A DNA stretch of 64,000 nt from Gammaproteobacteria bacterium (GTDB lineage Bacteria; Pseudomonadota; Gammaproteobacteria; Ga0077536). Of this stretch, positions 35,304 to 55,948 are shown piece by piece (the stretch's first letter is position 1; every line of letters begins with the position of its first letter). The notes beneath the pieces were generated by a model. It saw nothing but the letters and a program-made list of their open reading frames with translations, was not told the DNA's origin and did not search any database. Where the stretch lies: positions 50,408 to 114,407 of the forward strand of contig JAYODW010000004.1 in NCBI GenBank assembly GCA_038116745.1. The letters run 5' to 3'. A program made the translations under genes and the position numbers.

Positions 35304-35400
35304 GTCTTTCTCCTCGGGTTACTGACCATCTACAGATCGAACGATCGTTCACGGCTGCGCACCAAAGCCGCGCGGCCTGTATATCGAGCCGACTCTGGCT

Positions 35401-35420
35401 GTGAACGGTTCCTGTGAACC
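35401..35420. promoter_or_regulatory. palindromic candidate operator upstream of PQQ dehydrogenase gene
   Basis: GTGAAC direct repeat containing the perfect palindrome GGTTCctgtGAACC (35407-35420). Its inverted partner GTTCACGG lies at 35347-35354. All sit in a roughly 400-nt leader. Confidence 0.25.
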
Positions 35421-35712
35421 ACGCATCTGCTGCCCGCGCGGCAGGCCCTGACGTCGCTCTCTCAGCGCTGCGTCCAATTCTAAAGGCTTCGTCGGATCCG
35501 CCGCAGCGGCCTCGATAGAAAAAGGCAAAAGCGTGGCACAGCGCTTGGGCGCAGGCCGCAGAAGTCCATGCGACGCGACGCGCAGACGAGCCTGACCACT
35601 CTGGCCGTGGCGAGGACAAACCGTGATCCGATGGTCGCAATATCATTTCCATGCTCTGGGCGATCTGCTATACGAAATCCGCTTACCGCAGGTTCGAGGG
35701 GAGGTACCACCG

Positions 35713-37581
35713 ATGCGCAATTTCCACACAGCGGTCTGCTTGCAGACTCTCGTTGTTACCTTCGCATGGAGCGCAGCGCTGCTTGCTGCCGGACCTGCCG
35801 ACACCAACTGGCCCACCTACAACAACACAACCGATGGTCAGCGCTATTCCACGCTGGACCAGATCACTTCAGCCAACGTCAGCAGCCTGACGGAAGTATG
35901 CCGCCTCAAGATCGACACATCCGGGACGTTCCAGCCCGGAATCATCGCCCTCGACGGCACGCTCTATCTGACCAACGCCCACGACACGCTTGCGGTCGAC
36001 GCGACCAGCTGCGCGCAGCGCTGGCGGCATACCTATCACCCCGAACAGCACGAGGTTTTCCAGATCAATCGCGGCGTCGCCTACGCCAACGGCAGGCTCT
36101 TCCGCGGCACGCCGGACGCACGCCTGCTCGCACTCGACTCCGGCAGCGGAGAGCTGGTCTGGCAGCAGCAGGTGGGGGATCCCAAGCAGGGCGAGTTTTT
36201 CAGCAGCGTGCCGATCGTCTGGCAAGGCCAGCTCATTACCGGTGCTGCCGGCAGCGACTGGGGGATCCGCGGTCGTGTGATGGCTTTCGATCTGGATGAC
36301 GGACGCGAACTCTGGCGCTTCTGGACTATCCCCCGCGGCAAGGAAACCGGCGCCGATACCTGGGAAAACGCCGGCACGGCGCGCTACGGCGGTGGCGGCA
36401 GCTGGAGCACCTACACCGTCGACATGGCTTCCGGCGAGGTCTTCGTTCCCGTCGGCAACCCTGCGCCGGACTTCATGCCCGGCCATCGTCCCGGCGAAAA
36501 CCTGTTCACCAACAGTGTGGTGGTGCTGAATGCACGGACCGGTGCGCTCAACTGGTGGCACCAGATGGCGCCAAACGATGGCCTCGACCTCGATATCGCA
36601 TCGGCACCGATGCTTTACTGGAACAGCAAAGGCGAACCGATGATGGCGGCCGCGAGCAAGGACGGTCACGTCTACGGCGTGAATCGGGAGAGCCATGCTC
36701 GCGTTTACATGACCCCCGTGACAACGATCGCCAAGCCCGAGGGCGATCCTGACGCCGAAGGCGTGCGTTCCTGCCCGGGCGCACTCGGCGGCGTCGAATG
36801 GAACGGACCTGCCTGGGATGCGACAAACAAACAGGTGATAGTCGGTTCGGTGGACTGGTGCTCAATCATCAAATCCGCCGAGGTCAAATACGAGCCGGGC
36901 CAGTTCCTGTTCGGCGGCAGCTACTCGTTTGAGGACGAGCGCTCCGGCTGGGTCCATGCGCTCGATCCCGACGATGGCAGCGTGCGCTGGTCGTATCACG
37001 CTGACGGCCCAGTCGTTGCGGGTGTTACCCCGACTGCAGGCGGCGTGACGTTGACGGGCGACATGACGGGCAATCTCATCGCGCTCGACTCTGCCACCGG
37101 AGCGGTGCTGCTGAAACACCAGACCGGAGGCGCCCTGGCCGGTGGGGTGATTACCTACGCCAGCGGCGGCCGGCAGTACGTCGCCATCGCGTCGGGCAAT
37201 GTGTCCTCGCGCCTGTCATTCGGCGAGAACGGTCAGCCCACGCTGATCGTCTATGCGCTGCCGACCGGAAACGAAACAGCGCGCAGCGCGAAGGCGCCGG
37301 TTGCAGCAGTTACCGACGACCTCGATCCAAAATCGATGAGCGCCGCCAACGCTGATGTGTCCAACGGGAAAAAGATCTACGCCAAGAACTGTGCGGCCTG
37401 TCACGGCGCCCATGGCGAGGGTGCCGTCGGACCCCGGCTCCAGGATCTGAACGCCCGCCGCGATTTCACCGCAATCGTGACCTGGATCGTTGAGCCGTCC
37501 GCGAAGATGCCACGACTCTATCCTTCGGCGCTGGATGCGCAATCGGTGGCGGATGTCGCCGCCTTCGTGCACGGCATGTAA
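35713..37581 (+). CDS. PQQ-dependent dehydrogenase with C-terminal cytochrome c domain (quinohemoprotein-type)
   Basis: Repeated PQQ beta-propeller W-motifs and a C-terminal CAACHG heme site. Start ATG 35713 has a GAGGGGAGG RBS and a signal peptide. No vicinal Cys-Cys pair is seen. Confidence 0.8.
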   Translation: MRNFHTAVCLQTLVVTFAWSAALLAAGPADTNWPTYNNTTDGQRYSTLDQITSANVSSLTEVCRLKIDTSGTFQPGIIALDGTLYLTNAHDTLAVDATSCAQRWRHTYHPEQHEVFQINRGVAYANGRLFRGTPDARLLALDSGSGELVWQQQVGDPKQGEFFSSVPIVWQGQLITGAAGSDWGIRGRVMAFDLDDGRELWRFWTIPRGKETGADTWENAGTARYGGGGSWSTYTVDMASGEVFVPVGNPAPDFMPGHRPGENLFTNSVVVLNARTGALNWWHQMAPNDGLDLDIASAPMLYWNSKGEPMMAAASKDGHVYGVNRESHARVYMTPVTTIAKPEGDPDAEGVRSCPGALGGVEWNGPAWDATNKQVIVGSVDWCSIIKSAEVKYEPGQFLFGGSYSFEDERSGWVHALDPDDGSVRWSYHADGPVVAGVTPTAGGVTLTGDMTGNLIALDSATGAVLLKHQTGGALAGGVITYASGGRQYVAIASGNVSSRLSFGENGQPTLIVYALPTGNETARSAKAPVAAVTDDLDPKSMSAANADVSNGKKIYAKNCAACHGAHGEGAVGPRLQDLNARRDFTAIVTWIVEPSAKMPRLYPSALDAQSVADVAAFVHGM

Positions 37582-37664
37582 CAGGTGAGGACACAAGACC
37601 TTCCAGAACCTGTGTTCTGCGCTTTCCATTCCCAGTCCGCCCGATAAGACCCGAGGAGACAGCT

Positions 37665-38741
37665 ATGAAATTCAGCATCATGCTAGCCACGAAAATCGAC
37701 GATTGGGAGATCTATCCCGAGATCGAAGCAGCGGGCTACGACGCCGCCTGGGTACCCGATTCCCAGATGCTGTGGTCGGATTGCTACGCCACGCTGGCAC
37801 TCGCCGCCCATCACACCTCGCGCCTAGAGATTGGCACCGGCGTCGCGATCCCCGGAACACGCATCGCGCCCGTCACCGCGCACTCGATCGCATCGATCAA
37901 TCGGCTGGCGCCCGGTCGCACCTTCCTTGGTATCGGCACTGGTCACACTGCTATGCGGGTCATGGGCATGCAGCCAATGAAGGTCGCGGCGTTTCGCGAA
38001 TATCTGCGCGTTGTCCGCGCGCTGCTCGACGGCGAAGAAGTGACGTTTACGCGGGGCGGCGTCTCGCGCCAGATCCGCTTCCTGCATGAGGAGCTGGGCT
38101 TCCGCAATGTCGAGGACCGCATCCCCATCTATGTGGCGGCCAACGGGCCGAAGGCGCTGCAAGCCGCCGGCGCCTACGCAGACGGCCTGGTCGCGATTTT
38201 CAACGAAGATCCCGATGCGCTCAATTTCCACCTGGGTCTGGTCAAAGAAGGCGCAGCGGCGGTCGACCGAACCTTACCGGACCCTTTCAGGCTTTCCACC
38301 GTGACCACGGCCGTAGTCATGCGCGCCGGGGAGACACTGCGCTCTGACCGTGTGATTGACGCCTGCGGCTCGCAGGTGATGTGCACCATCCATTTCGTTT
38401 ACGAGATCGTCAAATACACGGGAAACGAGGCGATGATCCCTGAGTTCCTGCAGGACATCTGGGAACCTTACTGCGCCCACGTCGACGCGATGGAAACACC
38501 GCCTGAGAAACGCTATCTCCAGATCCACGACGGCCACTGCACGTACTATGTGCCGGAGGAACGCCGCTTCATCACGCCCGCAGCAATCGAGGGCGTCTGC
38601 CTGGTCGGCAGCGCACGGGAGATTGCCGAGCAGGTACACACGTCCGAAGCGGCGGGACTCAGCGAGGTCATTCTTTTGCCGCCCATGGCCGCTCTGCGCG
38701 ACGTTGTGCGCGACTTCAAAGAGGTTATAGACGTTTACTGA
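37665..38741 (+). CDS. LLM-class flavin/F420-dependent oxidoreductase
   Basis: Luciferase-like fold. GAGGAG RBS. Confidence 0.8.
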   Translation: MKFSIMLATKIDDWEIYPEIEAAGYDAAWVPDSQMLWSDCYATLALAAHHTSRLEIGTGVAIPGTRIAPVTAHSIASINRLAPGRTFLGIGTGHTAMRVMGMQPMKVAAFREYLRVVRALLDGEEVTFTRGGVSRQIRFLHEELGFRNVEDRIPIYVAANGPKALQAAGAYADGLVAIFNEDPDALNFHLGLVKEGAAAVDRTLPDPFRLSTVTTAVVMRAGETLRSDRVIDACGSQVMCTIHFVYEIVKYTGNEAMIPEFLQDIWEPYCAHVDAMETPPEKRYLQIHDGHCTYYVPEERRFITPAAIEGVCLVGSAREIAEQVHTSEAAGLSEVILLPPMAALRDVVRDFKEVIDVY

Positions 38742-38887
38742 TGCAGCCGTCAGAGCGTCGGGCGAGCACCAGCCAGCTCTCGGCCGACGCTCTCGCTATC
38801 ACAGTGGCCGCAGGAGCATCGGACATTACCGTGCGTGACCGGAGCGCGCTTACCGCTTGGCTCCAAGCGTCGCCGTTGCGGGTTTTC

Positions 38888-39904
38888 TCAGGGGTGGGTT
38901 TCGTCGAGAAAAGGGGCCAGCAGCGCCTCAGTCAACGCCTCAAGCTGTAAGTCCCGTTGCAACACACGCTGCGCTGCATCAGATTCAACGACTTCCATAA
39001 GATCGACTGCAACTTCAGCAAATTCGCTCGCTTTTTCCAGATTCAAGCCTCGCGTCTGGGTAATCAGATTGCGCACCACTACGGCACTGGATCGCCCTGC
39101 CACCTTGAGCAGCACCCCTGCACCTGGGACCGTGCCCAACACGCTCAAGGCGCGCTCAGCGTCCGACACCATCTCGCCACTGAACGCGCTCTTCCCCGAC
39201 AGCGCCGTGTACAGCGAGAGCAGGTTGCCCACCACGGGCGTCGCATCGAGTAGCGTACGCGCCGCTTTTCCAATGACGGTGGGCCTGACGGACAGATACC
39301 GAGCTGCACCGCTGAAGACGTCTTCGCCTTTTGCTTCAGCGAAAAAGGCACCGACGTTGGCCGCAAGCTGTACGAGCGGGTTCTCCTCAGATTCAGTCTG
39401 ACCGACCTCAGTCAAGCGGAACTGCATCGCAGGAATCAAAGGCCAGCGTCCGTAGACCCTGGCGGCGAGCTCAGGTGCCCAAGTCAGCTCCATTGATTCG
39501 GCGTGAAACAGCTCGGATCTTTCCAGCTGGGTCGTGAATGCACCCAGAGCCCGGGCGCAAGCCTTTGCTGTCTTCGGATCAAGTCGAGTGGGAGCGGGAT
39601 GTTCCTTGGCCAGGGCTGCAAGCCGCAGAAAGTCCCGTTTCCCATCCGGCAGCAGTGCGCCGATCTGACGCGCGGTGATTGTGGCAAAACCTGCCGGCAC
39701 CAGGGACTGATATTGCTCGGCCGACAATTCCTGCACCTGCGCTGCACTCAGAGCCTCCACCTGCGACCTCGAAAAAGCCGGGAGGTGACGCTTGCAGAGA
39801 TCTACGCACTGGCTGGTCGTATCACCCGCCGCTACGTCGACAGCGGCTACCTGCTCAGCAGGGCACTGGTGCCCGAACAGGTCATCGAAGACGGCGTAGT
39901 CCAA
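38888..39904 (-). CDS. hypothetical Ala/Leu-rich protein of unknown function (the first 45 codons cross an inferred rearrangement junction)
   Basis: Non-Arg-rich composition with no recognisable family. The open frame upstream of about 39776 overlaps the TpsB fragment and may not be translated. Confidence 0.4.
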   Translation of the reverse strand: MDYAVFDDLFGHQCPAEQVAAVDVAAGDTTSQCVDLCKRHLPAFSRSQVEALSAAQVQELSAEQYQSLVPAGFATITARQIGALLPDGKRDFLRLAALAKEHPAPTRLDPKTAKACARALGAFTTQLERSELFHAESMELTWAPELAARVYGRWPLIPAMQFRLTEVGQTESEENPLVQLAANVGAFFAEAKGEDVFSGAARYLSVRPTVIGKAARTLLDATPVVGNLLSLYTALSGKSAFSGEMVSDAERALSVLGTVPGAGVLLKVAGRSSAVVVRNLITQTRGLNLEKASEFAEVAVDLMEVVESDAAQRVLQRDLQLEALTEALLAPFLDETHP

Positions 39905-41113
39905 CTGCAGGTCATTGAGGGCTATGTCGATTCAGTTACGGTTGAAGGGGTGCACAGCACCCGCTCAGGTCTGCTGGGGCACTACGGAGACCGAATCAAG
40001 GCCAGCCGCCCGCTCAAGCGCGCGGTGCTGGAGCGATATCTGTTGCTGGCGAACGATATTCCAGGTCTGCGTTTCAAGGCGGTGCTGAGTCCGTCTGCTG
40101 CAAACACAGGGGCGGCTGCGCTGACGCTGACTGCCTCTGACGCACGCTGGTCAGGCTCGGTCAGTTTTGACAACCGGGGCGCCGACTACAGCGGGCCCTG
40201 GCAGGGCCTGATCGAGCTCAGCGGCCATAACCTGCTGAGTCTGCTGGAGAGCACGACCGTGCGCTACGCGACGGTTCCTGATGACCTTGAAGAGCTGCAC
40301 TACTGGGCGGTCCGCCATGAGCAGCTCCTGAGCGCGGAAGGACTGCGTCTGGCAGTGGACGTCAGCGGCGCGGATAGTGAAACGGCTTCGGCTGTGCTGA
40401 GCGCACTGGAAGTCGAGACCCAAACGCGAAGCGCGGGACTCACCGTGAGCTACCCGATCCTGCGCTCGCGCGAGCGCAATCAGCGCGCGAGTGTCGGGCT
40501 CGCCATGAAGGACGCTGAGGTCGAGCTACTGGGAGCGATCTACGACCAGAGCGATGGTTTCGGAGGAGGCGGTGTGACCGTCCTGTCGGCTTCTGTGGTG
40601 CAGGGGCTGGACATTATCGATGCGCAGGTAACCAGCTATGTTTCAGCTGATCCGGATTTTACTTACGTATCCCTTTACGCCTGGCGTTCACAGCATCTGT
40701 TCGAGTCCCTCCGGGCCGATGTGCGGCTTTCGGCCCAGCTGACCAATGAAAGTCTTCCCGCGATCGAGCAGGCCGGGCTTGGCGGCGAGCATACGGTGCG
40801 CGGCTATGAGTCTTCAGAGTGGACGGGCGATGAGCTGGTCAACACGTCGCTCGAGCTGGTTTATCAGCTGCCGGCGCCCAGGGTGGAAAGCGTGCAGCTG
40901 CACGGTTTTTATGACTACGGCAAGATCTGGCGCAACAACCCGCAGGTGGGAGAACGCCGGTCGCAGTCAGCCGATGCGAGCGGTGCGGGCACGCGAGTGA
41001 AAATCACGGACCGGCTCGGGCTTGACCTTGAGGCCGCGCGGACGCTGGATGATGACAGCGAAGGCAAATCACGCGGATGGGAGTTTTTTATGCGCGTCCG
41101 CGCGGAATTTTAG
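39779..41113 (+). pseudogene. TpsB (ShlB/FhaC-family) transporter, C-terminal portion from mid-POTRA1 to end, lacking signal peptide
   Basis: Reads REVTLAEIYALAGRITRRYVDSGYLLSRALVPEQVIEDGVVQLQVIEGYVDS (POTRA_2) followed by a beta-barrel ending FMRVRAEF. No signal peptide is present. The track ORF's first 92 codons are spurious read-through. Confidence 0.65.
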
Positions 41114-41218
41114 AGCCTGGCCAGGCGCGGGCGCGTCGAGCAGAGTTGCAGGCTGGGGTTGAGCAAGGGGATTTCTTTTATCCTTTGGGCTGACTGAGGT
41201 GCTCTGGCGGATAAACCA

Positions 41219-43408
41219 ATGAAGCGGATCAGAAAAGTCCAGGTGTCGACCGGCGTTTACTGGGTAGAAGTGCCGGACGCCAACGCCTACGTGCTCTGCG
41301 GAGCGCCTGCCGACAGCACCAAGCATCTGTTCAAGCGCGGTCTGATCGTTCCCACCGAGAACGACGGTGTGAGTTTCGAGACGGGTCCGAACATCATCTT
41401 GCTTTCAGATCTGATGCTGCAGAACGGCATGTTCTGCAACATGGTTGAATTCCCCATACTGCAGATGCTCTACCGTCAGGGCATGTTGATCCCGGGACAT
41501 CCGAACAACACGGGCCAGAAGCCGCTCCTGGTCGGGTCACCGGATCAGATAGAAGCGCAGCTGCAGTACATCTATCGCGGTAATTACGGACTGGTTTCGA
41601 CCGAGGAGCTGATGGACGCGGGCATGGCTCCGTCAATGGCCGACGAGCTTATGGAAATGAAGCTCAAGTTCGCCTTCGGAAAGATTCACGACACGCTAAA
41701 TTTTCTGGAGACCTGTCCGCTCGGCGCGGCGCGGGTGGAAATCCGCCCGGGGCTCGGGCTGAGGCGGGTGCGGGCGAACGTTTTCGAATTTGATTACGAC
41801 GAGGAGTCGGTCACGATCGACCTCAATCTGGGTAACCACGAAAAATACAGTTCTCCTATTCCGCTCGATTTCCACAACATACAGAAGGAGTACTTCGCGG
41901 TTATCCACAGCGGAGAGGGCGACGGGTGGGATACCGATCGCTCAGCGATGATGTCCATTCTGATGTTTCAGGGGAAGGTGTACCTCATCGATGCTGGTCC
42001 CAGTGTCATTCAGATCCTCGAAGCGCTGGGGATCTCGGTCAATGAGGTTGAGGGAATCTTCCACACGCATTCCCATGACGATCACTTTGCCGGTCTACCG
42101 GCATTGATGAGAACTGATCGACGGCTCAAGTACTTCGCGACGCCCATGGTGCGGGCGTCCGTGGCGAAGAAAATGTGTGCGCTGCTGTCGATGGACGAGA
42201 GCGACCTCGAGTATTACTTCGACATAGAGTCGCTGCAGCACGACACCTGGAATGATATCGACGGCCTGGAAGTGAAACCGATCATCTCCCCGCACCCGGT
42301 CGAAACGACAATCTTTCAGTTCCGCACGCTGTGGGAGGATGGCTACAAGGTATACGCGCACTATGCGGATATCGCCGCGTTTTCCGTCATTGACGGAATG
42401 GTCAAACGAAATGCGGATGAAGCAGGAATCTCGCCGGAGTTTGCCGAGCGCGTGAAGCGGAGCTATCTCGAGCCCGTCGACGTCAAGAAAATCGATATTG
42501 GTGGCGGCATGATTCATGGAGCCGCCAAGGATTTCCGCGCGGACAGCTCAAAGAAAATCGTGCTCGCACATACCGCGCTGGCTCTGAGCGATGAGCAGAA
42601 AGAAATCGGCTCCCAGGCCGCTTTCGGCACGGTTGACGTCCTGATTCCTTCGTTTCAGGACTATGGGCTCAAAGCGGCGTTCGATTATCTGCAGGCGGAT
42701 TTTTCCGACGTGCCCAGTTCGCAGTTCCGGATGCTCCTGAACCATCCGGCGCCAACTCTTAATCCCGGTACCATCGTGGTTCGTGAGGGCGAGGTGTGCG
42801 ATTACACCTATCTCATCCTGAGCGGTTTCGTGGAGATGATTCGGTCATCCCGGCAAGTCAAGCGGCAGCTTTTCGCGGGTTCCATGATCGGTGAAGTGAG
42901 TGCGTTGAGAGAACGTCCGTCCGAGTTCACTTTTCGAACCTTGTCCTATGTCAGGGCGCTGAAGGTGCCGGCACGCCTCTATCGGGACTTTATCCGAATA
43001 AACAACCTCTATTCTCAGGTTGAGCGATTGCACGAAGCGTGGAATTTCCTGATCGAATCCTGGCTCTTCGGCGATGGGATCCCGGATACTGTGCTGAACC
43101 TGCTGGTCCAGAACATCGACCTGCAGGAGCACCCCTGGGGCCACGAATTTGACCTGAAATCAGACCGATCTTTGCGCATGCTCAAGTCCGGCAAGGTTGA
43201 GCTGTACAAGGGTGAGCAGTGTCTCGAGCACCTGCAGCCGGGTGATTTTTTTGGCGAGGAGTGGATTGTCGGCGGGTGGGACTCGGACCGGCGTGTGAGG
43301 GTCGCATCAGATAGCGCCGAGGTTTATGCCATTCGCTCAGAGAAGCTGGAGTACATACCGATCTGTCGCTGGAAGCTGCGCGAGATAGGTGCTCGGCGTC
43401 GTGTGTAG
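41219..43408 (+). CDS. multidomain protein: unknown N-terminal domain + MBL-fold metallo-hydrolase + two cNMP-binding domains
   Basis: MBL motif HTHSHDDHFAG (HxHxDH) with AGP...KVYLIDAGP upstream. The C-terminus carries two cNMP-binding-like beta-barrel/helix units (...GEVCDYTYLILSGFVEM...FAGSMIGEVSAL...; ...YKGEQCLEHLQPGDFFGEEWIVG...). GC is lower than in the surroundings. Confidence 0.75.
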   Translation: MKRIRKVQVSTGVYWVEVPDANAYVLCGAPADSTKHLFKRGLIVPTENDGVSFETGPNIILLSDLMLQNGMFCNMVEFPILQMLYRQGMLIPGHPNNTGQKPLLVGSPDQIEAQLQYIYRGNYGLVSTEELMDAGMAPSMADELMEMKLKFAFGKIHDTLNFLETCPLGAARVEIRPGLGLRRVRANVFEFDYDEESVTIDLNLGNHEKYSSPIPLDFHNIQKEYFAVIHSGEGDGWDTDRSAMMSILMFQGKVYLIDAGPSVIQILEALGISVNEVEGIFHTHSHDDHFAGLPALMRTDRRLKYFATPMVRASVAKKMCALLSMDESDLEYYFDIESLQHDTWNDIDGLEVKPIISPHPVETTIFQFRTLWEDGYKVYAHYADIAAFSVIDGMVKRNADEAGISPEFAERVKRSYLEPVDVKKIDIGGGMIHGAAKDFRADSSKKIVLAHTALALSDEQKEIGSQAAFGTVDVLIPSFQDYGLKAAFDYLQADFSDVPSSQFRMLLNHPAPTLNPGTIVVREGEVCDYTYLILSGFVEMIRSSRQVKRQLFAGSMIGEVSALRERPSEFTFRTLSYVRALKVPARLYRDFIRINNLYSQVERLHEAWNFLIESWLFGDGIPDTVLNLLVQNIDLQEHPWGHEFDLKSDRSLRMLKSGKVELYKGEQCLEHLQPGDFFGEEWIVGGWDSDRRVRVASDSAEVYAIRSEKLEYIPICRWKLREIGARRRV

Positions 43409-43475
43409 GGGTCGCGAAGGTGTCGCAGCCCCGATCTCGCGGCGCTTGAAAATCGGGCATTCATCGAGGAAAGAA

Positions 43476-43739
43476 ATGCCGATGCGCTGTCTCACGCACC
43501 CCAGTGCTGAATCTAACGCAGAGCTGATCAGCCCATCTTGGAAAAGCGAGTCGGAGAAAGTCGGGCTCAAGGCGGCCTGTGCGGCTGCGGCCTTTTTTCT
43601 TGGAGGACTAGCGTCGCAGCAGTTGGCTGCGAATCCCGAGGGCGGCCGGGTCGTTGCGGGGGCTGGTTCTATCGCGACCCAGGGTGAGACGCTTACCGTA
43701 CATCAGCAGAGCTCTCAGGCAATCCTGAACTGGGAGAGC
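43476..43739 (+). pseudogene. TpsA (filamentous-haemagglutinin-type) N-terminal fragment, truncated after NWES of the TPS domain
   Basis: GAGGAAA RBS and an extended signal peptide. Then LAANPEGGRVVAGAGSIATQGETLTVHQQSSQAILNWES, the canonical start of the haemagg_act/TPS domain. Similarity stops at about 43739. Confidence 0.6.
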
Positions 43740-44049
43740 CGAGCATGTCAGCACGCTGCTCCTGGAGCTCAGCGGCGGAAAAAACGGTCGCGCCTTCAAC
43801 CTCGATGCGCGTCAGGGTGAAGCGGATTTCTCCGGCGCCGGTTGGCGCGCTGACGCTGCCGTTTGAGCCCGGAACCGCGACTACGCCGCCCGAAGAAAGC
43901 GCTGAAGGTGCTTGTTCGAAGCGTTTCTCGATCTGTCCGGGTGCCGCGGCCCCGGAAAGCCCCTGGCCCACTGCCGACAGCGGAAACGACAGAAGCAGCG
44001 CGAACCAGACGCTGTTCTGATGTCTACCTTCGGGGAGGCTGACTTTCAT
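43693..44049 (-). pseudogene. TpsB N-terminal fragment (signal peptide + start of POTRA1)
   Basis: MKVSLPEGRHQNSVWFALLLSFPLSAVGQ signal. ...IRFTLTRIEVEGATVFSAAELQEQRADMLG, then unrelated residues and a stop. TpsB-like sequence ends at about 43738, the same point where the plus-strand TpsA fragment ends. Confidence 0.6.
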
Positions 44050-44316
44050 GTCTCAGTAGTATCGACGCTTCTCAAGCTCGTACCAGTCAGTCGGGACGGT
44101 GACCTCGCATCAGCCCGCTGCGTGGGGAGGACCAAAGTCCGCGCGGAGCCAAGCATGGAACACCCCCGGATCGAGAACAGGAGCATGCTCCATGACTCCG
44201 TTTACTTTTTTTAGCCGATTTTTTCGGAAGGCTAGGAGCTTCAAGAGTAAAACTCAATTAGAACATTAAGTTTTATCCGGGCTCACGATGGGAAAAAGAC
44301 ACGGAGGCTTTCGGGT

Positions 44317-46362
44317 TCATTCCACCGCAATCCCGCCCTCCGCGAGGGCCTGTTTGAGCTGCGCAACCAGGCGCGACCACTGCACCCGGTGCACCCGGCC
44401 GATCAGATCAACCCGGGGCAGGCCCGCGCCCTTGACCAGGTAGTAGCCATCTTCTGCCGGCATGACGCCATCCATGTGGCAGATGTCGTTTTCCAGGCGG
44501 CAGGACACGCCGAGGCGGTCATAGCCGAAGTGTTTGAATACGCGCAGGAATGTAGTCGACAGCGATGGGCCTCCGCCGGCCACCCTGGAGATAGTGTCGA
44601 CCGCACGCTGGCTCAGGCGGTGACGCGAGTCATCATCCTCGGGCGTGCGCAGGCTGAGATCGAAGCCAACCGGTTCGCCTTTGACGATCCGCAGCTTCTC
44701 GATATCACCATCGAGACGACCACTGACCTGGCCGAAAGGCACCACCTGCGTGATCTGTTCGAGATCCAGACCGCGCATGCGGATGGATGCACTGACCTCG
44801 GGCACGAGCCCGAAAGGCTCCGCGATACGCAGCTCCGCGACTTCAATCGCGCCGTCAAATGCGCTCGCCTCGAGCGTCCCGCCGAGGGTCACGGTGCCAT
44901 CCTGATAGGTCAGCAGCGGCAGCCGGCCGGACAGGCTACCCGCGAACGGCGGCCAGTCGAGGGCCAGGGTCAGCTGACCCAGATCGATGGGCTCCAGCGC
45001 TGCTTCGAATCTGAGCGCAATGTCGTCGCTGGCGTAATTCCGCAGCGAAAAGGCATCCACGCGCAGGGCGCCTCCGAGCAAAGGCACACGCACCGGCGCC
45101 AGCAGGTCGACAGCCTGCCCGGCCATGCCGAGTTCAAGCGTCAGCGCGCCGAAGCCGGCACCGTGCACAAAACCGCCATCCAGCGTAATCAGGCTCGAGC
45201 TGAGGGCGTCACCGCGCGCCGCCCAGATAACTTCACCGTTTATGCCGTAGACGGCAAAACGGCCCTGGCGGTCCTCCAGATGAACCTGTGAGAGCGACAG
45301 ATCAATGGACTGCAGGTCGCCGGCCGCCAGCTCAAAACGCCCCGCAAGCTCGCCGCCGATATCCAGAGTGGCGAACGCCGTGCCGACCAGAAACCCGGCC
45401 AGATATAGATCGTAGAGCGCAGGAAAGCGTCCCTGTCGGATCGCGCCGCGAACGCTGGTGAGCTCTCCTTCTTCCAAGCGCAGTTCATCGAGCGTGACGG
45501 ACAACGCACCAGGCTGCTCGAGCTCAAGTCCGCGCAGCGACAGGACAGCTGCCGCTGGCTCGTAGCTCAGTGCGGTGCTCAAGCGCAGGGGAAATCCGGC
45601 CAGGTCCAGATAGACCGGTTCCACGTAGGCACCGCCGGCGTCGACACCGAGCGTCAGCGTCCCGCGCCACGGCGCCGCATTCCCGCCGCTGAGCTGAAAG
45701 CCGAGAAGCGCATCAAGCGCCTCCGTCGCCACACGACCACTGTCATCACTGCACGCAACGTCGCTGAACTGCATCTCACCCGCAGCGCTTACCCCGGAAT
45801 CCGCTGACTCAAGCCGCAGACTGAAACTCACCTGTCCCGACGAAAAGCTCAGCCCCCGAAGATGTGGCTGTGGTAGTGGCAGCTCGGCGAGAGCGAGACC
45901 TGTTCCCGTCGCCGTAACTGACAGCGCACCGTCCCGCACATCCAGGATCAGCCCGAGCGCCAGTGTGCCCCCGGCCAGCGGAACCGGGAACAGGTCAACG
46001 CCAAGTCGTTGCCCGGGGACGTCATAGCTCAGCGTTGCCTGCATCGGCGGCCAGCCCGGCACCCGTAGGTCAGCGTCACGGCAGGCGACCTCAAGAGCGC
46101 TGATCGACACGCCATAGCAGTGCAAGGAAACATCCTGCAGACGACCTACCGGCGACGGCAGCTCCAGGACGCCCAGCGACAACGTCAGCTCCGGTCCCCG
46201 CGACCCGGCCCAGTCGACGGTGAGGCGCAGGGTCTCGGCGCGCCAGCCCGCACCCTCGATGGCGGCAAGCGTCAGCGCACTCGGCTCTGCAGCATGCGTT
46301 GTCGCGCTAAAGCCAAGCAATACGGCCAGCGCGCCCGCTCGCAGCCGGCCACCAAAACTCAT
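44317..46362 (-). CDS. YdbH/AsmA-like large periplasmic protein
   Basis: Signal peptide. 681 aa, Gly/Leu/Ala-rich repeats. C-terminal YYLVKGAGLPRVDLIGRVHRVQW-type motif. Confidence 0.45.
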   Translation of the reverse strand: MSFGGRLRAGALAVLLGFSATTHAAEPSALTLAAIEGAGWRAETLRLTVDWAGSRGPELTLSLGVLELPSPVGRLQDVSLHCYGVSISALEVACRDADLRVPGWPPMQATLSYDVPGQRLGVDLFPVPLAGGTLALGLILDVRDGALSVTATGTGLALAELPLPQPHLRGLSFSSGQVSFSLRLESADSGVSAAGEMQFSDVACSDDSGRVATEALDALLGFQLSGGNAAPWRGTLTLGVDAGGAYVEPVYLDLAGFPLRLSTALSYEPAAAVLSLRGLELEQPGALSVTLDELRLEEGELTSVRGAIRQGRFPALYDLYLAGFLVGTAFATLDIGGELAGRFELAAGDLQSIDLSLSQVHLEDRQGRFAVYGINGEVIWAARGDALSSSLITLDGGFVHGAGFGALTLELGMAGQAVDLLAPVRVPLLGGALRVDAFSLRNYASDDIALRFEAALEPIDLGQLTLALDWPPFAGSLSGRLPLLTYQDGTVTLGGTLEASAFDGAIEVAELRIAEPFGLVPEVSASIRMRGLDLEQITQVVPFGQVSGRLDGDIEKLRIVKGEPVGFDLSLRTPEDDDSRHRLSQRAVDTISRVAGGGPSLSTTFLRVFKHFGYDRLGVSCRLENDICHMDGVMPAEDGYYLVKGAGLPRVDLIGRVHRVQWSRLVAQLKQALAEGGIAVE

Positions 46363-53137: not shown

Positions 53138-54109
53138 TCACGGTGCCAGAATGGGAATGCTGAGTTCAGCGCGATCCTCGAGATGCAGATGCGCCGCAGC
53201 GGCATCGGCAAGCGCAAAACGTTTGACCGGATGCGGCCGCAGAACGCCTGCATCCAGCGCCTCGAACACGCGCCCGGCGCTCAGCTCGAGCTCGGCGCGT
53301 TCGGCAACGTAATCGTTAAGACGCGGACGCGTCAGATAGAGCGATCCCAGGCGCGACAGTCCCAGCACATCGTAGGGGTCCGGCTTTCCGGAAGCGTTGC
53401 CGTAGGCAACCATGAGGCCGCGGCGACGCAGGCATTCCAGTGATTTCTCGAACGTGTCTTTCCCGACCGAGTCGTAGACCACATCCACGCCGCGTCCGCC
53501 CGTCATCGCCTTCACCTGCTCCACGAAGTCGTCCTGCTGATGCAGCAACACCTGCTCCGCTCCGGCCTCCCGCGCCGCGGCAAACTTGCTCTCGCTGCCG
53601 ACGGTGGCGATGACCCGAGCGCCCAGGTGTCGCGCCCACTGCACCATGAGCAGACCCGTGCCGCCGACCGCCGCATGGACAATGACGGTTTCATCCGGCT
53701 GCACGGCATGCAGCCGGAACAGCAGGTATTCGGCCGTCATAGCGCGGGTCAGGGTCGCGGCCACAACATCAGGATCAACGCCGTCCGGAATGCGGACCAC
53801 CTGATCCGCGCGGATCACCCGCCTTTCACAGTAGGCCCTGGCGACTGAACCGTAGGCCACCGTATCACCCTCAGCCAGCTCACTTACCCCTGGACCAAGT
53901 GCTTCAACCACCCCCACCGCCTGGTCGCCGATCACGGCCGGCAGGGGAATGGGATAAATGCCACGACGGAAATAGGTGTCGATGTAGTTGACCCCGATCC
54001 CCGTGTGACGGATGAGCACTTCGCCCGGGCCCGGGCTGCCCAGATCGATTTCGGACAGGGTCAGCTGTTCAACGCCGCCATAGGCGTGAATGACAATAGC
54101 GGGGGTCAC
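53138..54109 (-). CDS. qor: NADPH:quinone oxidoreductase (MDR/zinc-ADH superfamily)
   Basis: Qor pattern (MTPAIVIHAYGG..., AAVGGTGLLMVQWA). Confidence 0.85.
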   Translation of the reverse strand: MTPAIVIHAYGGVEQLTLSEIDLGSPGPGEVLIRHTGIGVNYIDTYFRRGIYPIPLPAVIGDQAVGVVEALGPGVSELAEGDTVAYGSVARAYCERRVIRADQVVRIPDGVDPDVVAATLTRAMTAEYLLFRLHAVQPDETVIVHAAVGGTGLLMVQWARHLGARVIATVGSESKFAAAREAGAEQVLLHQQDDFVEQVKAMTGGRGVDVVYDSVGKDTFEKSLECLRRRGLMVAYGNASGKPDPYDVLGLSRLGSLYLTRPRLNDYVAERAELELSAGRVFEALDAGVLRPHPVKRFALADAAAAHLHLEDRAELSIPILAP

Positions 54110-54177
54110 GCGTGTTCTCCGGGTGTGTGGTCAGCCGAGTATACCCGCGCGGCATGGGGCCTGATTCCCTGCAATGC
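53969..54177. repeat. direct repeat copy 1 (about 209 bp; qor 5' end + upstream region)
   Basis: About 97% identical to 55711..55919 (4-5 mismatches by eye). Confidence 0.8.
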
Positions 54178-54692
54178 CAACGCCAACAACCGTTGGGGTA
54201 CACCTCATTCGAACGGAAATCAGACGTTCACAACACGTAAATCATCTCTAGCAGCCCAGCTGCCTAGATCTTCCGAACCCATAACCAAGCCGTTCGAGAC
54301 TGGTTATAGCGGTGAGAGCTGCTCGCCGCATGAGGTCGACATCCATATCTCATGGACATTTTTCTACTACAGACCGGCTAGCTTCAGAGGGCGCGCCGCC
54401 GGACAGGCCAGTAATTGCCCAAAATGATGCGTTTCCTTTCCCGGTTCTTTCGTCCGCAGGGGGGATGGTCGAAATAGGACCTCTGTCTTGCGCCTTGCGC
54501 ATATCCGCTGAGAGGCCATCCGAAGCTTGCGAAACCTCTGCCGGACCGCCCCAGCCTCAGACATCGAAACAGAACAGGTAGGGAAGGCATCGCGGTTAGC
54601 TATTCAAAAAGCGGGGTTGTCCTTCTCAGCTTCTATCTGCGGAAGCTGGCTCACCCCCCCTAAGGGCGGGCTGTCTCAACTGCTCAGATAGC

Positions 54693-55382
54693 TTAACCGG
54701 CCAATCGCAGAGCGTAGTAGAAATGATGCGAGAAAAGCCCAAGATTCGATTCCTGAAACAGCCGCTTCCAGGGTTTCCGGGACACCGGCCTGTAAATTCT
54801 AATTAATTCGAATCCCAGTCTCCGGGACAGTTCATAGATCATAGACTCAGTCATCCATAGGACATGTTCACAGCTAGCAGTGAACATTCGCTTCCTAACG
54901 ACCCGGAAAACGTTTGTTAAACAAAAAGGGTTAGGGGTCGCGATCAGCAAAATTCCGTCGAGCTCAAGATGTCGTCTCGCAAACGCAAACAATGAGTCCA
55001 GGGAATGCACGTGCTCTATCAAATCTCCCATAAAGACGACTTGGAACTGCCTGCCCAGAAACCGATCCGATGTCGCGTCACATAGCGCCACATCAAAGCC
55101 GTCCTTCTTCAGCGCATCAACCATAGACTGAACAATATCGATCCCAAGGCAGTCCGAAGCGACTTGAACGATCTTCCTGTGCTTCCACTTGGTTGACCTA
55201 AAGCGAGGCAAATCGTGGGCCGCCGCTCCGATATCTAGGACCGACTTGCCTTCAAACAAGTGGAGTAACCCACTGAAGCCACCGGCAAGGGGTTGTGTCA
55301 AGGACTGCAGATGCCTCTGAATATCTTCGAGGACAGAAGTGTCTTTCGGATCGTCTGTTCGTGCGGTCCAGTCAATAGTCAT
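54693..55382 (-). CDS. class I SAM-dependent methyltransferase
   Basis: Motif I (VLDIGAAAHDL). GC markedly lower than flanking genes. Confidence 0.7.
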   Translation of the reverse strand: MTIDWTARTDDPKDTSVLEDIQRHLQSLTQPLAGGFSGLLHLFEGKSVLDIGAAAHDLPRFRSTKWKHRKIVQVASDCLGIDIVQSMVDALKKDGFDVALCDATSDRFLGRQFQVVFMGDLIEHVHSLDSLFAFARRHLELDGILLIATPNPFCLTNVFRVVRKRMFTASCEHVLWMTESMIYELSRRLGFELIRIYRPVSRKPWKRLFQESNLGLFSHHFYYALRLAG

Positions 55383-55578
55383 AGTCAGGAGCCTCGATAA
55401 TGCCCCCGCTCTGCTCAGGTAGTTTTGCTTCTTTCACGCTACTCACGATATTCGCAATGGAATCGCAGCCTTCCTGCTTGGATAGCATACGACCAACCTG
55501 ATGAATCACTGGATGCGGCACTGAGTTGACGAATGCTTCCCCATCTTCCAAGGCAGCGATGGGATAGCGTCCCATCAC
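55372..55578 (-). CDS. small hypothetical protein (68 aa) upstream of the methyltransferase
   Basis: Low-GC ORF overlapping the MTase start by about 10 nt. No family recognised. Confidence 0.25.
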   Translation of the reverse strand: MMGRYPIAALEDGEAFVNSVPHPVIHQVGRMLSKQEGCDSIANIVSSVKEAKLPEQSGGIIEAPDYDY

Positions 55579-55710
55579 ATGACAAGCTGCTCAATAGAAG
55601 CGTTATAGCGACTGAGGGGACGTTGCCCCCCGCTGTAGGCTCACATAACGAAATCGGGCACCTCAAGGAGCTGGTCACAGGCGGTGGGTAACAGGATAGA
55701 GCCTTGGACA

Positions 55711-55919
55711 GAAATAGGTGTCGATGTAGTTCACCCCGATCCCCGTGTGACGAATGAGCACTTCACCCGGGCCCGGGCTGCCCAGATCGATTTCGGACAG
55801 GGTCAGCTGTTCAACGCCGCCATAGGCGTGAATGACAATAGCGGGGGTCACGCGTGTTCTCCGGGTGTGTGGTCAGCCGAGTATACCCGCGCGGCAAGGG
55901 GCCTGATTCCCTACAATGC
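55711..55919. repeat. direct repeat copy 2 (about 209 bp), containing a 47-codon qor 5' fragment (55711..55851, minus)
   Basis: Duplicate of 53969..54177. Encodes MTPAIVIHAYGGVEQLTLSEIDLGSPGPGEVLIRHTGIGVNYIDTYF with no continuation. Confidence 0.8.
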
Positions 55920-55948
55920 GGGCGCCAGCAACTGCCGGAGAGCCATCC

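Follow-up and report, generated by a model that had tools for sequence, protein, structure and literature searches.

The subject of this analysis is a broken two-partner secretion (TPS) locus in a stretch of 64,000 nucleotides from the gammaproteobacterial contig JAYODW010000004.1 (the whole stretch is called the window hereafter, and all positions refer to it). The genes of the transporter (tpsB) and of its secreted partner (tpsA) are each present as two separated fragments, and these surround an intact gene for a metallo-β-lactamase (MBL)-fold protein with cyclic nucleotide monophosphate (cNMP)-binding domains. We find that the cassette was most probably inactivated by one illegitimate deletion-inversion with three breakpoints. 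Reverse-complementing 39777..43739 in silico joins the two pieces of tpsB in frame and yields a protein of 548 amino acids, while the two ends of tpsA are brought together without the middle of the gene. An initial annotation, made from the sequence alone, had proposed a split tpsB and an inversion of about 39776..43740; each element that it listed was found where it had been placed, and the re-inversion result upholds its central claim.

Anatomy of the locus and restoration of tpsB

The features of the locus are as follows.

43738..44049, minus strand: tpsB 5′ fragment, with start codon, signal peptide and the beginning of POTRA1; residues 1-104, the last of them RADMLG
43740..43738, minus strand: G104 codon of tpsB, the last codon of the 5′ fragment
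39777..41113, plus strand: tpsB 3′ fragment, residues 105-548, with the remainder of POTRA1, POTRA2, the ShlB/Omp85 barrel with its VRGY loop motif, and the stop
41219..43408, plus strand: MBL/cNMP gene, intact, 729 amino acids, between the tpsB and tpsA fragments and inside the inverted segment
43476..43739, plus strand: tpsA 5′ fragment, with ribosome-binding site, ATG, a long signal peptide and about 37 first residues of the TPS domain; 88 codons
38888..39784, minus strand: tpsA 3′ fragment, the last ~295 residues, with ALTTAQ-like repeats, PT-TG pre-toxin domain and a short conserved C-terminal tail; stop at 38888
39777..43739 (±2 bp): inverted segment, as re-inverted in silico
39777..39784: left junction, a probable 8-bp inverted microhomology
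43738..43739: right junction, a GC dinucleotide
44050..44316, minus strand: spacer upstream of the tpsB start, 267 bp, at the right edge of the island
35322..44316: strain-specific island of about 9 kb, holding a PQQ/cytochrome c alcohol dehydrogenase gene, a luciferase-like monooxygenase gene and the broken TPS cassette

Pieces of tpsB and tpsA alternate over 5.2 kb, and TpsA adjoins its TpsB partner as it does in intact relatives. There is no continuous tpsB gene: its halves lie on opposite strands, 3.96 kb apart. The open reading frame (ORF) that holds the 5′ fragment encodes 118 amino acids and extends to 43693, and its extra 14 residues are unrelated to the rest, being antisense to the tpsA 5′ fragment. 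The 3′ fragment begins with the R105 codon at 39779 and runs to the stop at 41113. It has neither a signal peptide nor a start codon of its own, the upstream extension of its ORF is antisense tpsA sequence, and the annotation of the source genome carries it as a truncated protein of 442 amino acids (P0001).

The sequence at the restored tpsB junction is GACATGCTCGGCCGGGAGGTGACG. The restored sequence is identical for breakpoint pairs 39776/43739, 39777/43738 and 39778/43737, because a GC dinucleotide is shared. The initial annotation had named a contiguous alignment of the rejoined TpsB across the joint as support for an inversion, and this is what we obtained: the POTRA_2 profile (PF08479) matches over its full length (E=1.9e-23, profile positions 1-76 of 76) at residues 77-152, crossing the joint at 104/105, and alignment with nine full-length homologues is colinear with no indel at the joint. 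ShlB (PF03865, E=1.5e-20) and Omp85 (PF01103, E=7.6e-10) are also found in the rejoined protein by Pfam, and the sequence GGEHTVRGYE contains the loop-6 VRGY motif, of which R445 and G446 are invariant in the homologue alignment. The protein aligns, too, with the structures of CdiB (6WIM, residues 71-262) and of the TpsB4 POTRA region (2MHJ, residues 79-152). On these profile and structural matches the rejoined product is a transporter of the ShlB/FhaC/CdiB type.

For tpsA, both ends are kept and the middle is lost. When three TpsA homologues (L001, L008 and L011) were compared with the 64 kb window by tblastn, all N-terminal alignments stopped exactly at 43739. Homologue residues 55-91 map to 43629..43739 (E=4e-8 for the stub) and residues 1083-1378 to 39787..38906; residues 92-1082 have no match anywhere in the window, from the whole of which about 990 tpsA codons (~3 kb) are absent. 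Re-inversion brings the two tpsA ends next to each other, with a frame offset of one base. After the signal peptide the 5′ fragment reads ANPEGG...ILNWES, so that about 37 residues (to NWES) are left of a TPS domain whose complete length is about 250. The truncation that the initial annotation had set at this point therefore stands, on tblastn evidence. The profile scan it had suggested for 43476..43739 contributes nothing: PF05860 gives no match, even at E<=1, to the 88-residue stub or to the re-inverted product of 153 residues, because the fragment is too short and not for want of homology. L001 TpsA scores E=8e-35 on this profile over residues 62-296.

The 3′ piece was misjudged in the initial annotation, which had described ORF 38888..39904 as Ala/Leu-rich and not like a TPS beta-helix. 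From 39775 down it encodes the C-terminal 295 residues of TpsA, including a PT-TG domain (PF14449) at residues 213-273 of the 338-residue ORF (E=1.3e-8, 35.1 bits against a cut-off of 23.5). The piece corresponds to residues ~1084-1382 of L001 TpsA, with positions 39777..39784 overlapping tpsB-derived sequence (the microhomology discussed below). It is 46% identical to L001 TpsA over residues 1087-1382 and 43.5% identical to the C terminus of L099 TpsA, and it is colinear with its homologues down to the stop codon. The further loss of tpsA sequence that had been suspected thus amounts to a single clean deletion inside the gene, of about 990 codons, adjoining the left junction. The closest intact locus (contigs L001-L003) has a TpsB 55% identical to the rejoined one and consists of tpsB followed by a 1382-residue tpsA with TPS, MBG/YDG, ALTTAQ and PT-TG domains; the L099 TpsA, of 1896 residues, carries TPS, YDG/MBG and PT-TG in the same succession. 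We considered whether L001 might be the same island in a relative and rejected this, as its flanking genes are unrelated to those of the window.

With TpsB reduced to a 104-residue stub bearing the signal peptide and a barrel without one, and TpsA to two ends out of frame with each other, we infer that the TPS system of this genome is dead. The MBL/cNMP gene is intact and has presumably been cut off from its former upstream promoter, presumed to lie in the 267-bp spacer, from which any transcription would now run antisense to it.

Junctions and mechanism of the rearrangement

Both junctions recur in assemblies other than the deposited one. The 118-residue stub ORF across the right junction is also present in L004 (SRR26337560) and L005 (SRR26337559), and a 504-residue ORF across the left junction is also present in L007 (SRR26337561). 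These are Logan single-run assemblies, made with a pipeline different from that of the deposited genome, and they match the window at 99.94-100% identity over 2.0-6.3 kb, on both flanks of the junctions. Within the cassette the identity is 100% except for a single mismatch, 3 nt short of the L007 contig end, the other mismatches lying in a neighbouring gene for a 681-residue protein. The misassembly against which the initial annotation had cautioned is thereby largely removed from consideration.

Only short microhomology is found at the breakpoints. On the right, a GC dinucleotide belongs both to the serine codon AGC with which the tpsA 5′ fragment ends and, in antisense, to the G104 codon of tpsB (GGC). 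On the left, GCCGGGAG (39777-39784) is required for tpsB codons G104 (in part), R105 and E106, and its complement, CTCCCGGC, encodes the L-P-A of an LxAF motif that occurs at the same position in the window (HLPAF), in L001 (QLRAF) and in L099 (QLSAF). Judged by this conservation, tpsB and tpsA probably share 8 bp of inverted microhomology at the left junction. The initial annotation had reported GGGAG-like microhomology; its shortness is borne out, and its identity is refined to GC on the right and probably to GCCGGGAG/CTCCCGGC on the left. Inverted repeats linking the two junctions are absent; the best-matching pairs of the region (18-31 nt, 70-83% complementarity) are located elsewhere. Nor is there a recombinase gene in or beside the island, which is filled by seven features (the PQQ dehydrogenase gene, the luciferase-like gene, four tps fragments and the MBL/cNMP gene), and the window contains no tRNA. 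The lack of junctional inverted repeats and of a recombinase agrees with the earlier view that the inversion was illegitimate and not programmed.

Both junctions place the break in tpsB at one and the same nucleotide, with no tpsB base lost, and the tpsA deletion ends exactly at the left junction, which makes one compound event likelier than separate events. All of the fragments are still open and are colinear with their homologues, and we therefore consider the rearrangement to be recent. The ancestor would have been a minus-strand cassette within the 9 kb accessory island, in the order tpsB (548 residues), MBL/cNMP, tpsA (about 1400-1900 residues), with the TPS domain of TpsA at its N terminus and the PT-TG module at its C terminus, and its transcription probably started in the spacer at 44050..44316. 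Breaks would have occurred between tpsB codons 104 and 105, after tpsA codon 88 and at about tpsA codon 1086. The segment from tpsB codon 105 to tpsA codon 88 would then have been flipped, and some 3 kb of tpsA between its two breaks lost. The broken DNA may have been repaired by end-joining, with one end resected, or the rearrangement may have come from two switches of replication template; the sequence alone fits either.

The same evidence bears on three explanations in which no such event took place. A misjoin in the contig would have to be considered for any genome that, like this one, is apparently from an uncultured source and assembled from a metagenome, all the more since support for the junctions is itself at the level of assemblies. 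However, the three single-run assemblies contain the junctions with matching flanks, and their contigs break within the MBL gene and not at the junctions; with no repeat at either junction to mislead an assembler, misassembly is unlikely, and we give an artefact only a very small chance. A programmed and reversible on-off switch of the TPS system (phase variation) would fit with breakpoints inside both structural genes and with the codon-perfect re-joining of tpsB, but we regard it as even less credible. It lacks terminal inverted repeats and a recombinase in or beside the island; flipping back would restore nothing, since about 3 kb of tpsA is gone and the rejoined gene is out of frame; the three sampled runs show one orientation only, and the protein database contains no intact TpsB of this type. 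An equally slight probability attaches to the idea that the POTRA stub, the signal-less barrel and the mini-TpsA are separate genes in a native and functional arrangement. All of them do remain open reading frames, but the barrel has no signal peptide or start codon, its extension and the tail of the stub are antisense tpsA, and the fragment ORFs are confined to this strain. Split genes do not occur among the homologues, all 80 other matches being single proteins of about 550-600 residues.

The MBL/cNMP gene and the ancestral gene order

The inverted segment carries the MBL/cNMP gene, as had been noted from the start, and the gene is intact. Pfam identifies an MBL-fold hydrolase (Lactamase_B/Lactamase_B_2 at residues 251-340, with the motif HTHSHDDH) followed by two C-terminal cyclic-nucleotide-binding domains (cNMP_binding, E=2.6e-21, in two stretches). 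Every residue that is invariant in an alignment of 13 sequences is kept in the window protein, HTHSHDDH included. The family has more than 3000 full-length homologues, with a conserved N-terminal region of about 240 residues and, in many members, an added C-terminal hemerythrin domain. Matches in the PDB were limited to the cNMP-binding domains of protein kinases, and a search of NCBIfam with this protein, the tpsA 3′ fragment and the 681-residue neighbour returned only sub-threshold MBL matches.

The lower GC content that had been ascribed to the segment holds for the MBL/cNMP gene (0.56). We considered a foreign origin of the gene on this ground and rejected it, because its GC content at third codon positions equals that of tpsB (0.715 vs 0.712) and because the MBL gene lies 5-9 GC points under tpsB and tpsA in every cassette examined. 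Its low GC is thus a trait of the family and reflects the amino-acid composition of these proteins. The gene has the same orientation as the adjoining tps fragments, 105 bp from that of tpsB and 67 bp from that of tpsA.

Its closest full-length homologues are found beside other TPS genes. Those with 67-68% identity each lie 10-45 bp upstream of a tpsB-tpsA pair (L008-L011, L015, L016 and L095-L100). Counting every close homologue (67-71% identity) whose downstream flank was recovered, all of them TPS-linked, there are 13 loci in about three sequence lineages, from Burkholderiales/Comamonadaceae metagenome-assembled genomes (MAGs), groundwater and other metagenomes; a partial match with 71% identity (L073) stops at a contig edge. 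Homologues with 58% identity or less are not linked to TPS genes, and of the 77 GTDB loci whose homologues are 50-56% identical, none shows a TpsB in the surrounding 8 kb. The TpsB proteins of the MBL cassettes are only about 25% identical to that of the window, with the same C-terminal module in TpsA. Because all of the 67-68% homologues adjoin tpsB-tpsA, the MBL/cNMP gene is, by its gene neighbourhood, a recurrent TPS partner and not a chance passenger. A literature search for work joining TPS systems with MBL/cNMP proteins found nothing relevant beyond the Dictyostelium phosphodiesterase architecture considered below.

The order of genes in these cassettes is a separate matter. By signed permutation, the present order in the window is one inversion away from tpsB-MBL-tpsA and at least three from MBL-tpsB-tpsA, and the former is therefore favoured as the ancestral order; MBL-tpsB-tpsA, as the starting point at this locus, was rejected on parsimony. 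It is possible that the broken locus preserves, in permuted order, a three-gene module not yet described, with functional coupling of the MBL/cNMP protein to TpsB-TpsA(PT-TG), although we put this forward tentatively and lean against it. If it were true, cyclic-nucleotide turnover would control, or be controlled by, this class of secreted PT-TG protein.

A different association is seen in L012 (6152-16441) and L013, with a TpsB (P0008) that is 46% identical to that of the window. In the L012 locus, tpsA encodes a TPS domain together with a caspase-like Peptidase_C14 domain, and after tpsB-tpsA come, in turn, the gene for IalB, an unknown gene and one for a CHASE2-guanylate/adenylate cyclase. 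On predicted function this cyclase is another tie of this TpsB lineage to cyclic-nucleotide signalling.

Gene order speaks for the explanation that the locus arose by several separate events, whether an inversion and then a tpsA deletion, a later insertion of the MBL gene between the fragments of an already rearranged tpsB-tpsA pair, or a longer history from MBL-tpsB-tpsA. Every other cassette with a close MBL homologue is ordered MBL-tpsB-tpsA, and the closest TpsB relatives (L001, L012 and L014) have no MBL gene between tpsB and tpsA. Against this, a deletion at a later time would need to have stopped precisely at the inversion junction while sparing every base of tpsB, and a start from MBL-tpsB-tpsA requires the three or more inversions already mentioned. 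Chance insertion of the MBL gene at a dead locus is itself unlikely given its orientation, its third-position GC, its spacing of 105 and 67 bp and its membership of the TPS-linked subfamily. We consider a history of separate events unlikely, although less so than an artefact, a switch or a native arrangement.

The single deletion-inversion remains the preferred reading, and a number of points weigh against it. The order tpsB-MBL-tpsA has no precedent: all other cassettes with a close MBL homologue are MBL-tpsB-tpsA, and around the closer TpsB homologues the order was not found either, with tpsB followed directly by tpsA in L001, L012 and L014 and the contig ending early in L103. An un-inverted allele is not present in any database genome or metagenome, nor among the 5.8 billion proteins searched with the 548-residue TpsB, which returned a truncated self-match (P0001, P0083) and relatives with at most 55% identity; with the nearest relative this distant, the ancestral state is reconstructed and not observed. 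The left microhomology, itself probable, rests on the LxAF motif in just two homologues. Finally, the accessions SRR26337559-61 are consecutive and probably belong to one study, perhaps also that of the deposited genome, so that the three assemblies are separate and the populations behind them not necessarily independent.

The island, its surroundings and comparison with known systems

The comparison of gene order with related genomes that had been suggested at the outset could be made with two relatives of ~97% identity, both of which are without the whole island. In L006 (~97% nucleotide identity) the sequence is colinear with the window on both sides, and about 0.55 kb of unrelated intergenic DNA (L006:12047-12599) takes the place of 35322..44316. 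L101, which is also ~97% identical, has the same empty site (L101:9948-10518), located in both between the gene for the 681-residue protein and a Polyketide_cyc2 gene. Repeats of at least 8 bp, whether direct or inverted, are absent between the edges of the island, and no integrase or tRNA is found there. Besides the TPS cassette the island holds the following genes.

35623..37581: PQQ/cytochrome c alcohol dehydrogenase
37665..38741: luciferase-like monooxygenase

At the other end of the cassette the spacer (44050..44316) is AT-richer, as initially described, with a GC content of 0.52. The spacer and the locus have no Rfam match at E<=1 and no sigma-70-like site, and terminator-like matches occur at chance level. 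The stop codon of the gene for the 681-residue protein (44317..46362, minus strand) is the exact right edge of the island. This protein has a signal peptide, is more than 90% conserved in at least 17 sequences of related MAGs and has no match in Pfam or NCBIfam. Its gene differs between the window and L004 by four substitutions within 16 bp (45619..45634), the remaining 6.3 kb being identical; this cluster may reflect strain micro-heterogeneity or a recombination patch. A second difference from L006 lies at 53944..55932, between zinc-dependent alcohol dehydrogenase and DsbA-like genes, where a 1742-bp unit is bounded by direct repeats of 247 bp (53944-54190 and 55686-55932; 92% identical) and contains an ORF for a 229-residue S-adenosylmethionine-dependent methyltransferase (54693..55382, minus strand); L006 has a single copy of the repeat.

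For annotation of this genome, the analysis means that four ORFs are fragments of two pseudogenes and that one intact gene has lost its operon. The locus is also a well-preserved natural example of a bacterial deletion-inversion, with three breakpoints, microhomologies of 2-8 bp and no further decay. The recurrent linkage of MBL/cNMP genes to TPS operons is the more useful by-product, and if functional it would suggest cyclic-nucleotide control of a class of secreted PT-TG proteins.

In the Dictyostelium proteins GbpA and GbpB, which are class IIb cNMP-activated phosphodiesterases, an MBL catalytic domain is combined with two cNMP-binding domains (PMC11988041). The window protein has the same MBL HxHxDH site (as HTHSHDDH) followed by two cNMP_binding stretches. 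It belongs to a bacterial family with an extra N terminus of about 240 residues, and the likeness is one of architecture; in this respect it resembles a class IIb cNMP phosphodiesterase, and such an activity is predicted for it.

The rejoined TpsB shares its signal peptide, POTRA domains, barrel and VRGY motif with the type Vb transporters FhaC, ShlB and CdiB of the Omp85 superfamily, whereas here the gene is broken between codons 104 and 105 and cannot yield a functional transporter. In the same way, the tpsA fragments preserve the signal peptide, the start of the TPS domain, the ALTTAQ-like repeats and the C-terminal PT-TG domain of TpsA/CdiA-like PT-TG exoproteins, but some 990 residues of the centre have been lost and the two ends no longer share a reading frame. 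In classical polymorphic toxins the C-terminal toxin tip varies, and the cognate immunity gene comes directly after it. Here, by contrast, the tail is conserved and not variable, and there is no immunity gene. A tail of about 65 residues after PT-TG (38888..39100 in the window) is conserved in the C termini of L001 and L099 TpsA, and the whole C-terminal module is 43-46% identical between cassettes whose TpsB proteins share only 25% identity. No immunity-like gene follows tpsA, and the 147 bp between its stop (38888) and the convergent luciferase-like gene hold no credible ORF. A conserved PT-TG tail without an immunity gene is unusual for the tip of a polymorphic toxin and suggests some role other than that of a toxin.

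Deletion-inversions with microhomology at their junctions are attributed to end-joining or to replication template switching, and the locus described here has the same three breakpoints, inverted middle and flanking deletion, with 2-8 bp of microhomology. Switches of the Hin, Gin and Fim type invert a defined segment by site-specific recombination and thereby alter gene expression. A defined segment has likewise been inverted in the window, but without inverted repeats, a recombinase or reversal, and with an added deletion. Set beside these systems, the locus is best described as a familiar type of system struck by a familiar type of event, namely ordinary gene death by illegitimate rearrangement.

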